A stretch of 64,000 nt of DNA from Ranitomeya imitator (lineage: Eukaryota), in contig NC_091282.1 in the NCBI RefSeq assembly GCF_032444005.1, positions 1,092,626,001-1,092,690,000 on the forward strand, written 5' to 3'. The translations under genes and the position numbers were made by a program. Within the stretch, counting starts at the first letter, position 1. Every line of letters starts with the position of its first letter. Under the pieces are notes generated by a model that ran no database searches, had not been told where the DNA came from, and saw only the letters and a list, made by a program, of their open reading frames with translations. This document shows, one piece after another, positions 44,193 through 45,862 of the stretch.

Positions 44193-45862
44193 AGAAAAAA
44201 ACAAAAAACAAAAAAGACCTAAAAAGTATATTTTTATTATTGTAAATAAATAAAACTAACGAACCACTGAGAACCTATAATACAAAAAGTAGGGATCCTA
44301 GGGTCAGGATAAGCTCATAAAAAATGATAGAGCAGAAAAAATATAATATAATACTATAAGGAAAGGGCTAGGGATGATAGTGGTGCCTCACCCTAGAACT
44401 GTACCCTTCCTTGCCGCGGAGGTTGGCACCCTGGGATACGAAATGGCGCCCCCGCTCAACGTCGACTGACCCTGATAACCCTAGTAGGTATCCCTACCAC
44501 AAGCCACCACCCAAACAAACACCACACAAAAACAAAAGAAAAAAGTGAAATATGAACACTGAAATGCTGTAACTAGTACTGACTGCTGATAGTAATGGTG
44601 AGCTTATAAAATAGACTCTGAGAAATAGCCAAGACTCTTGATCATGTAAACACTAGAAGATAAAGTGATTTACAGAAATAGGGTATAGACTATATTAGAT
44701 AACACACTATACTCCTCTAAAAAGTGGAATCAGATGGAGTACACGAGAGAAAAGAAAAAAAAAAAAAAAATCAAATAGTCACTTATTAGCAGGCAGAAGA
44801 GTCTAGGTACAACTTATGGTGTCGATGCCAAACGGACTGTATATATAGGAACATGGCTATCAATGACGTTCAATACAGTCCTTTATAATGCGCAGTGGCA
44901 TCAACGCCAGAAAGACATATATATTCATTCAGATATCTGAACATACGTGATGAACAATGTTTAGTCCTTTTATGGTGCACAATAACATCGGCGCCAGATA
45001 GATAATCACTCTATTTGATTTATACAAATATTTATAAGAGCATCTTTGCCAGACAAATGATGATAAAACATAATGACATCATCGCCAGAGAAAAAAAAAA
45101 AAAAAACGAAAATGTCCCAAAAATAGAGCACAAATTGTAAACTGATCAAAACTTGATGGCATCACCACCAAAAAATATAATAATAAAGCAGAGTCATAGC
45201 ATATGCGAGGGCATCATCGCCAGAAGGTATCATGATCCAAAATTGTCAATAGCATCGTCGTCAATCAGTGCTGACATATTTCTCACCCCACATGTGGATA
45301 TAGTTGACAGTGGTACTCTGATAGATGCTGTTTAATGTACAATGGCATCAACGCCAGAAAAAAGTGTGTCTATTCAGATATATGTGAGGGCATCATCCCC
45401 AGAGATATAATGATCTTTAGGTATCAGCAAATAGTGGCATCATCGCCAAAACAGAGCCCTCAATAAGCCGATCCATACATAACGTCACCGCCAACAAGAT
45501 GTAATTAGGATCATCGCATATGCATAAGCATCACCAGAAACTGTCATCAATCACCCATGCCAGTCATATCCCAGTCAGTGCAGGAATAGTCCCAGAACAT
45601 TAATATGTATAGTCAGGGGGAGTGGCATAGTGAGGCTGCATGATTAACATAGTGCAGCAGCAAGACAGGTGAAAAAAAAATCATAATAGACCGTCAGCAC
45701 AGCAGCATCTGTGTGCATAGGTAATACACTTATCTTAGGAGACAGTGTCTCATCCCTACGCGTTTCACCCCGGAGGAGATCCTGCGGGGCTCATCAGGGG
45801 ATGCCAATAGTAGGCGTGGGCAGCGATGAATACAGACGCTGCATGCGGTCCGGAAATAATCT
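44193..45862 (-). mobile_element. ORF-less hammerhead-bearing insert (PLE-pLTR/retrozyme-like, non-autonomous)
   Basis: Hammerhead near the minus-strand 5' end, hairpin-motif array, AATAAA followed by a U-rich end; flanked by the 310-bp duplication. Confidence 0.65.
45751..45803 (-). ncRNA. Type I hammerhead ribozyme, complete core
   Basis: CATCCC-CTGATGA-GCCCCG caggatctcctc CGGGGT-GAAA-CGCG-TA-GGGATG; 6-bp stems I and II, palindromic ACGCGT stem III, GUA cleavage triplet. Confidence 0.88.

Follow-up and report, generated by a model that had tools for sequence, protein, structure and literature searches.

What keeps a row of similar 15-nt motifs in place downstream of a hammerhead ribozyme in the genome of Ranitomeya imitator: a conserved fold, a conserved sequence, or the mechanics of tandem duplication? 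A preliminary description of the window (the whole 64,000-nt stretch of DNA analysed here) had read the row as about eleven mini-hairpins separated by unrelated spacers. It had proposed a multivalent protein-binding or processing array on a stand-alone self-cleaving non-coding RNA, with the caveat that a decayed tandem repeat could mimic such an array.

The pLTR and its parent element

The array and the features that surround it are as follows.

43883-44192, no strand: left copy of a perfect direct duplication, 310 bp long, of repeat DNA from the flanking host sequence
44193-45862, minus strand: solo pLTR of 1670 bp from a Neptune-type Penelope-like retrotransposon (PLE), 98.7-99% identical over its full length to copies on C1, C2 and C5
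44233-44238, minus strand: AATAAA, followed by TTTTAG and a U-rich tract where the element ends
44416-44460, minus strand: conserved G+C-rich stem-loop block near the 3' end of the pLTR
44818-45495, minus strand: 12 motif copies with the sense consensus TCTGGCR-N-T-GATGCC(A); on the plus strand the 15-mers start at 44818, 44897, 44984, 45039, 45075, 45158, 45210, 45251, 45344, 45389, 45436 and 45481
45527-45538, minus strand: a motif copy shortened by 3 nt, aligned to a full-length one in one sister subfamily
45728-45735, minus strand: conserved AGATAAGT just past the hammerhead
45751-45803, minus strand: type I hammerhead, read from the sequence and conserved across subfamilies
45863-46172, no strand: right copy of the 310-bp duplication

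A DNA search of the 5.96-Gb genome with 44193-45862 returned 76 matches, including four other copies that are 99% identical over the query. On C1, 99%-identical copies sit after an 856-aa frame with reverse transcriptase (RT) and endonuclease. This frame matched PF00078 (RT) at E about 3e-6, just under the curated cut-off, and Pfam returned no endonuclease match in it; a Cys-rich zinc-finger linker and, at the C-terminus, a GIY-YIG endonuclease with CCHH residues were read by eye in the translations. An RT, a Cys-rich linker and a GIY-YIG C-terminus are the features of EN+ Neptune-type elements as given by Craig et al. in the accessible parts of their preprint and of PMC8557442. The partial tandem that forms pLTRs, the inverted 5' copies and the optional tail are all present as well. 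By these sequence features the element is a Neptune-type EN+ PLE, Neptune being chosen over the Nematis label from the domain features and from the commonness of Neptune in vertebrates. In tandem copies the ORF1 ATG lies about 60 nt past the pLTR end, which makes the pLTR both trailer and leader. The carrier of the array is thus the pLTR of a protein-coding retroelement, and not the stand-alone self-cleaving RNA first suggested.

The copy in the window is probably no more than an inert fragment, and the 310-bp duplication around it is a probable long target-site duplication. Near-perfect flanking duplications were present in four of the 22 regions examined (310 bp in the window, and 304, 565 and about 320 bp at L034, L036 and L047, respectively), most other regions having none within the stretch fetched. 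From 46937 onward, the window looks like the start of a DNA transposon, which we take to be of Tc1 type from its terminal pattern. Target duplications of rotifer PLEs are far shorter, at 8-10 bp in the accessible text of PMC3846280.

Two further observations concern the element at large. Array-bearing and array-less families alike have the stem-loop block at 44416-44460 (minus strand; about 230 nt from the 3' end). It hardly varies between families whose pLTR interiors have nothing else in common, and it doubled as our criterion of pLTR completeness. The loop might base-pair with a GGG run downstream of it, and we regard the block as a candidate signal for the reverse transcriptase. At L099 (4811-5710 and 2460-5030, minus strand), as at L080, L084, L086, L093 and L115, the RT ORF is overlapped, in the -1 frame, by an ORF1 of about 260-290 aa. 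The heptamer T TTT TTA is kept in frame in six of six loci checked, and S-F-L-E in five of five aligned proteins, while the structure downstream is not clearly conserved; the heptamer probably marks a programmed frameshift at the overlap.

Inspection confirmed a hammerhead at 45751-45803 (minus strand) and thereby the position of the array downstream of it. The conserved core, the NUH cut site and all three helices are present: a 6-bp helix I, a long helix II, compensated across families and with a basal G-U in place of G-C in the window's subfamily, and a 2-bp helix III with a palindromic 2-nt loop. Cleavage is predicted between 45757 and 45756. Rfam gave no hammerhead match at 45751-45803, and its search returned nothing at gathering level and one chance-level miRNA match. 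Hammerheads in PLE pLTRs are already known (PMC4209133, in its accessible parts), and by comparison with those the 2-bp helix III suggests that cleavage would be dimer-dependent.

No more than 45 nt from the cut site, GATAAGT occurs in 27 of the 30 array-bearing representatives and in two of the seven array-less ones (sampled as described below). We take AGATAAGT at 45728-45735 to be GATA-site-like, or else splice-donor-like with AT instead of GT. Some array-less families have GT-type donor-like words upstream of the hammerhead instead.

In longer copies two CCGGAAGT-like words, inverted relative to each other and assumed here to be ETS-like sites, lie just upstream of the point at which the window copy starts, and the window copy is without the upstream promoter-like segment of these longer copies. 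Five insertions among 22 rows (the window at 45860, L005, L007, L015 and L020) have their first base at nearly the same point, to within a few bases, about 60 nt upstream of the hammerhead core. Since these are independent insertions with a shared start, their templates were uncut and unspliced there. We infer that this common point is the transcription start, and the window copy a reverse-transcribed leader without the core promoter. Internal initiation on uncut RNA has been demonstrated for an Anolis PLE (PMC11167929, in the part accessible). Four sequencing runs, whose type is guessed or unknown, gave contigs over parts of the element; these show no splice-type joint, which carries no weight either way. 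One contig of run X6 (RNA by guess, depth 8) has a dense A>G cluster over the pLTR end at L099 5982-6053, as ADAR editing of double-stranded RNA would give; this is a single, unconfirmed contig.

The motif array across the clade

All eleven motif copies of the preliminary description exist in the window, the ninth starting at 45389 rather than 45390. In order, they differ from its consensus at 0, 4, 3, 1, 2, 0, 5, 0, 1, 1 and 5 positions. A twelfth copy, starting at 44818 in the same orientation, is clearer at that place in other subfamilies. Scored with the matrix described below, ten of the twelve reach at least 10 bits, while the copy at 45481 scores 8.3 and that at 45251 less than 5. Matches with at most three mismatches number 11 in the window as against 2.71 expected, a count that none of 100 shuffles reached; eight fall within 44897-45450 and one more at 44815-44829. 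An 'anti-motif' at the latter position, pairing with the array, was considered and rejected, diverged subfamilies showing one more same-orientation copy. A coding repeat was likewise discarded, only three of nine window spacings being multiples of 3. Elsewhere in the window, two motif-like words in opposite orientation (37860-37874 and 38089-38103) belong to another small repeat with a TGACGTCA-like core and are probably unrelated to the array.

The analysis of the clade was made from the one genome. A search with the endonuclease end scored 150 matches of 54,727 candidates, and downstream DNA was taken for 60; together with loci from DNA and pattern searches, this yielded 92 segments from hammerhead to 3' block, many of them redundant. 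We kept 37 representatives, 30 with the motif and seven without. DNA or motif searches supplied the representatives of the window's own family; most of the 37 came from the protein search and so were not picked for the motif. The motif matrix (152 distinct instances, threshold 10 bits) found two to twelve copies in each of the 30 representatives from one clade, none in the seven outside it and about none in shuffles. The endonuclease tree had 33 rows, of which the 26 that bear the motif formed one clade with a support of 100/99. A matrix made from the window alone still gave 90 matches in 21 representatives outside the window's family, with none in the reversed sequences of these and none in the seven array-less representatives. 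Antisense matches to the matrix numbered two, both arising from the near-symmetry of the motif. An exact 17-mer occurred 133 times genome-wide as against zero for its reversed control; among the 30 loci inspected, all match Neptune pLTRs, two only over 64-101 nt, and no motif was seen outside Neptune elements. Metagenome scans for other species returned 0 loci and 1 uninformative locus, and the ORF1 homologues that have names (four of 11 matches) are from frogs.

The seven array-less families hold no repeated motifs of their own beyond three tandem units of about 260 bp in one family. Long intact ORFs are found also in array-less and two-copy lineages, which argues that the array is an add-on and not a core replication signal. 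These lineages bear equally on the idea that the element's own ORF1 or RT-endonuclease binds the motifs as a packaging or self-recognition signal. The restriction of the motif to one clade would suit such a signal, as would an Arg/Gly-rich tail on ORF1. The accessible part of PMC11167929 adds that the Penelope endonuclease recognises its own sequence and that the Anolis protein was modelled as a dimer. Yet the array-less families have homologous ORF1 (53-55% identical) and endonuclease (65-70% identical) in intact frames, and one lineage that has several copies of identical score is down to two degenerate motif copies. We consider this self-recognition improbable.

Comparing motif and spacer conservation across further copies, which the preliminary description had set as the test of its reading, revealed that spacers do not align as well as motifs. 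With the motifs masked, 24 of the 29 representatives aligned to no more than 25 of the 638 nt in the window's array region. In a comparison of four alignable subfamilies, variable columns made up 28 of 163 in the motifs as compared to 146 of 398 in the spacers (p=3e-6), and the difference holds for G/C and A/T columns separately. Singletons among ten distinct sequences of one subfamily, which reflect changes after insertion, are even (7/143 in motifs, 18/375 in spacers); their direct contrast with the between-subfamily differences gave p=0.16, which is not significant alone. The CpG at positions 4-5 of the motif is retained in 94 of 152 instances, at a spacer CpG o/e of 0.46.

The claim of unrelated spacers held for the window copy, in which none of 55 spacer pairs (p<0.01) or, by a second test, one of 36 showed significant similarity. 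It failed in sister copies, whose spacers are clearly homologous in 5/45, 6/55, 5/15 and 8/15 pairs; at least one homologous pair occurred in 11 of 15 representatives tested, and five to eight in several. Around the same motif, spacings and unit lengths vary with the lineage, between 23 and about 185 bp. Together, the homologous spacer pairs and the lineage-specific spacings point to repeated block duplication, after which the spacers decayed and the motif stayed; spacers are partly related because the array grew in this way. An ancestral 23-bp unit with decayed alternate motifs was rejected: 23-bp spacings do occur in five representatives, but mid-spacer remnants gave no signal.

The caveat of a tandem repeat was therefore apt as to how the array arose, but does not account for the persistence of the motif. 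Block-homologous spacers in many lineages, deletions seen between copies and the wide variation in motif number and quality are all what one would expect of a decayed, functionless minisatellite whose motif persists through repeated duplication and deletion between copies. Such turnover leaves unexplained, however, the fewer point changes at orthologous motif columns, the retention of the motif across unalignable spacers, the spread of unit lengths around one motif and the retained CpG. Decay along the unit is not uniform, and we find a neutral repeat of this kind hard to credit. The motif is conserved beyond plain minisatellite decay, as the fewer changing columns, the unalignable spacers and the matches of the window-only matrix indicate: this 15-nt sequence looks selected, kept and re-duplicated across many lineages.

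Fold, sequence and candidate binders

Selection on the motif need not be selection on a hairpin. The preliminary description had proposed that each motif folds into a small hairpin on the hammerhead strand and that the fold is what is conserved; its count of G-U pairs on that strand in five of seven variant window stems is correct. Perfect copies do fold in isolation, at about -5 kcal/mol, and the minimum-energy fold of the whole leader contains several motif hairpins. Covariation is nevertheless absent: pairing did not exceed the column-shuffled expectation at any of the five stem pairs (p 0.29-1.0), and only 83 of the 152 instances retain the outer pair. Pairing probabilities above 0.5 were reached by one or two of the 12 window copies on the hammerhead strand, and in other lineages by 25 of 105 sense as against 46 of 105 antisense instances, so that predicted pairing is low in the sense strand and higher in the antisense. 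On the same strand, spacers carry a mutational skew (C>T at 20/48 versus G>A at 9/48), and the motif's asymmetry, taken across the six G/C stem positions together, equals this spacer bias (p 0.79-0.90). At the outer four G/C positions, C>T at positions 12-13 slightly exceeds G>A at 2-3 beyond that bias (25-27 versus 4, p 0.03-0.05).

Hairpins are thus unsupported, because covariation is missing, about half of the information lies outside the stem (about 10 of the motif's roughly 22 bits fall outside GGC/GCC) and the G-U asymmetry largely equals the C>T bias; a conserved fold seems to us very improbable. What is conserved is sequence, not fold, and the array offers an example of a hairpin-looking motif whose G-U asymmetry is explicable by strand-biased mutation. 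We also rejected pairing of the motif with a TGGC just upstream of the hammerhead, as that TGGC is predicted to close a small local hairpin of its own; clade-wide sharing amounts to one event here.

Multivalent binding remains the likely function, as the preliminary description had it. On sequence grounds, we favour a homotypic cluster of sites through which a host DNA-binding factor would boost the pLTR promoter, a reading that we hold at somewhat under an even chance. The upstream pLTR of a tandem element would drive the downstream ORFs from a start about 60 nt before the hammerhead, just past the inverted ETS-like pair. The array, 0.2-1.1 kb downstream of this putative start, would enhance the element's own promoter from downstream; more sites would bring more or better-targeted (perhaps germline) expression, and duplication would be favoured. 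We prefer this reading because the place of the array matches that of the ovary control in Drosophila Penelope and because mouse L1 offers a known case of additive tandem promoter units. Read as four GNN triplets, the motif would presumably suit a tandem zinc-finger protein under the recognition rule. Helical phasing of the spacings was not found (41 distinct spacings, Rayleigh p 0.38-0.50). Among tRNA primer-binding sites, miRNA seeds and Smaug, E2F, CTCF, Smad and ATF motifs, we presume none to fit. Counting against a DNA-binding factor are this absence of phasing, the lack of a matching factor and the presence of the motif only in Neptune among the loci inspected, where a common host site might be expected elsewhere too. 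Moreover, all copies are transcribed from one strand, which fits recognition as RNA equally well.

Recognition as RNA is accordingly a close rival, inseparable from the DNA-factor cluster by sequence alone, and one that we regard as possible rather than probable. The copies, either single-stranded or in a duplex of two repeats, would then be sequence-specific sites at which a small RNA or host RNA-binding protein controls how the long unspliced leader is exported, stabilised, spliced or localised. Their position downstream of the putative start, on the sense strand only, agrees with this, as do the pyrimidine run ahead of most copies, the mostly asymmetric motif and the slightly raised number of G-U-compatible changes in the two outer G-C pairs. 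Sites of typical RNA-binding proteins are shorter than about 22 bits over 15-20 nt, however, and this motif is long by that standard. A single orientation is expected from tandem duplication anyway, covariation within the motif is absent, and a repeat-repeat duplex would place the 96%-conserved A9 opposite position 6, which is T in only 19%. To the case for RNA sites, the accessible parts of PMC8557442 and PMC11167929 add that PLEs keep introns and that their hammerhead needs protein help.

A more specific scenario, which we offer as rather unlikely, is that one amphibian Neptune clade acquired a new 15-nt element whose independently re-amplified array brings a host factor to the leader RNA with its hammerhead and licenses the unspliced, uncut template for export or for delivery to the germline.

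Comparison with known systems

The element class and its hammerhead are known. In the full-text literature, searched with the motif strings included and with Repbase, subscription papers and supplements outside its scope, we found no published description of a conserved 15-nt motif array of this kind in a pLTR. Compared with the hammerhead-bearing pLTRs of the Neptune clade (PMC4209133, PMC8557442), the element has the same RT and GIY-YIG-type endonuclease, Cys-rich linker, dimer-type hammerhead, partial tandem and inverted arrangement and optional tail, and the accessible parts of those papers mention no internal array of conserved motifs. The pLTR is about 1.7 kb long here as compared to about 200 bp in rotifers (PMC3846280, accessible part), and a fish Neptune with two ORFs is reported in the accessible text of PMC12602865. 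Animal non-LTR retrozymes, as far as the accessible part of bioRxiv 10.64898/2026.07.22.740005 describes them, share the type I hammerhead, the non-coding copy and the origin from a PLE pLTR. They consist, however, of tandem units that each carry a hammerhead (at least two), whereas here one hammerhead lies at the end of an ORF-bearing element, with no tandem array over the region.

A further comparison is with the Penelope element of Drosophila virilis (PMC2377424, accessible part), whose pLTR likewise serves as 3' UTR and 5' leader and whose pLTR region contains ovary-enhancing sequences downstream of the start site. Described for that element are one 70-nt region, bearing a 34-bp repeat, and an internal promoter; here, 2-12 copies of a 15-mer follow ETS-like sites upstream of the putative start, a comparison based on sequence. 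The monomers of mouse L1Md (PMC6454616, accessible part) add to transcription, and both leaders grow by tandem duplication with varying copy number. In L1Md whole units are added at the 5' end, while here a 15-nt core is kept in internal units of 23 to about 185 bp. The motif shares TGGC and GCCA half-sites with the site of nuclear factor I (NFI), for which altered spacers reduce binding in the accessible part of PMC11775196. Its matrix does not match the NFI consensus TTGGC(N5)GCCAA, differing in a spacer of 6, a C before TGGC in 83%, a last A in 54% and conserved central bases.

Vertebrate PLE expression is almost unstudied, the promoter dissections that we found being those of Drosophila Penelope and an algal element. 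For recruitment to the leader RNA, an analogy is offered by a scaffold like Xist repeat A, in which about ten short G+C-rich motifs, first read as hairpins, are joined by U-rich variable linkers. Xist is a host lncRNA and not a retroelement leader, and the likeness is meant as one of architecture. In the Neptune clade, a sharply defined, selected 15-nt element comes with natural lineages of zero, two and up to 12 copies, which together give a direct handle on its putative host factor.
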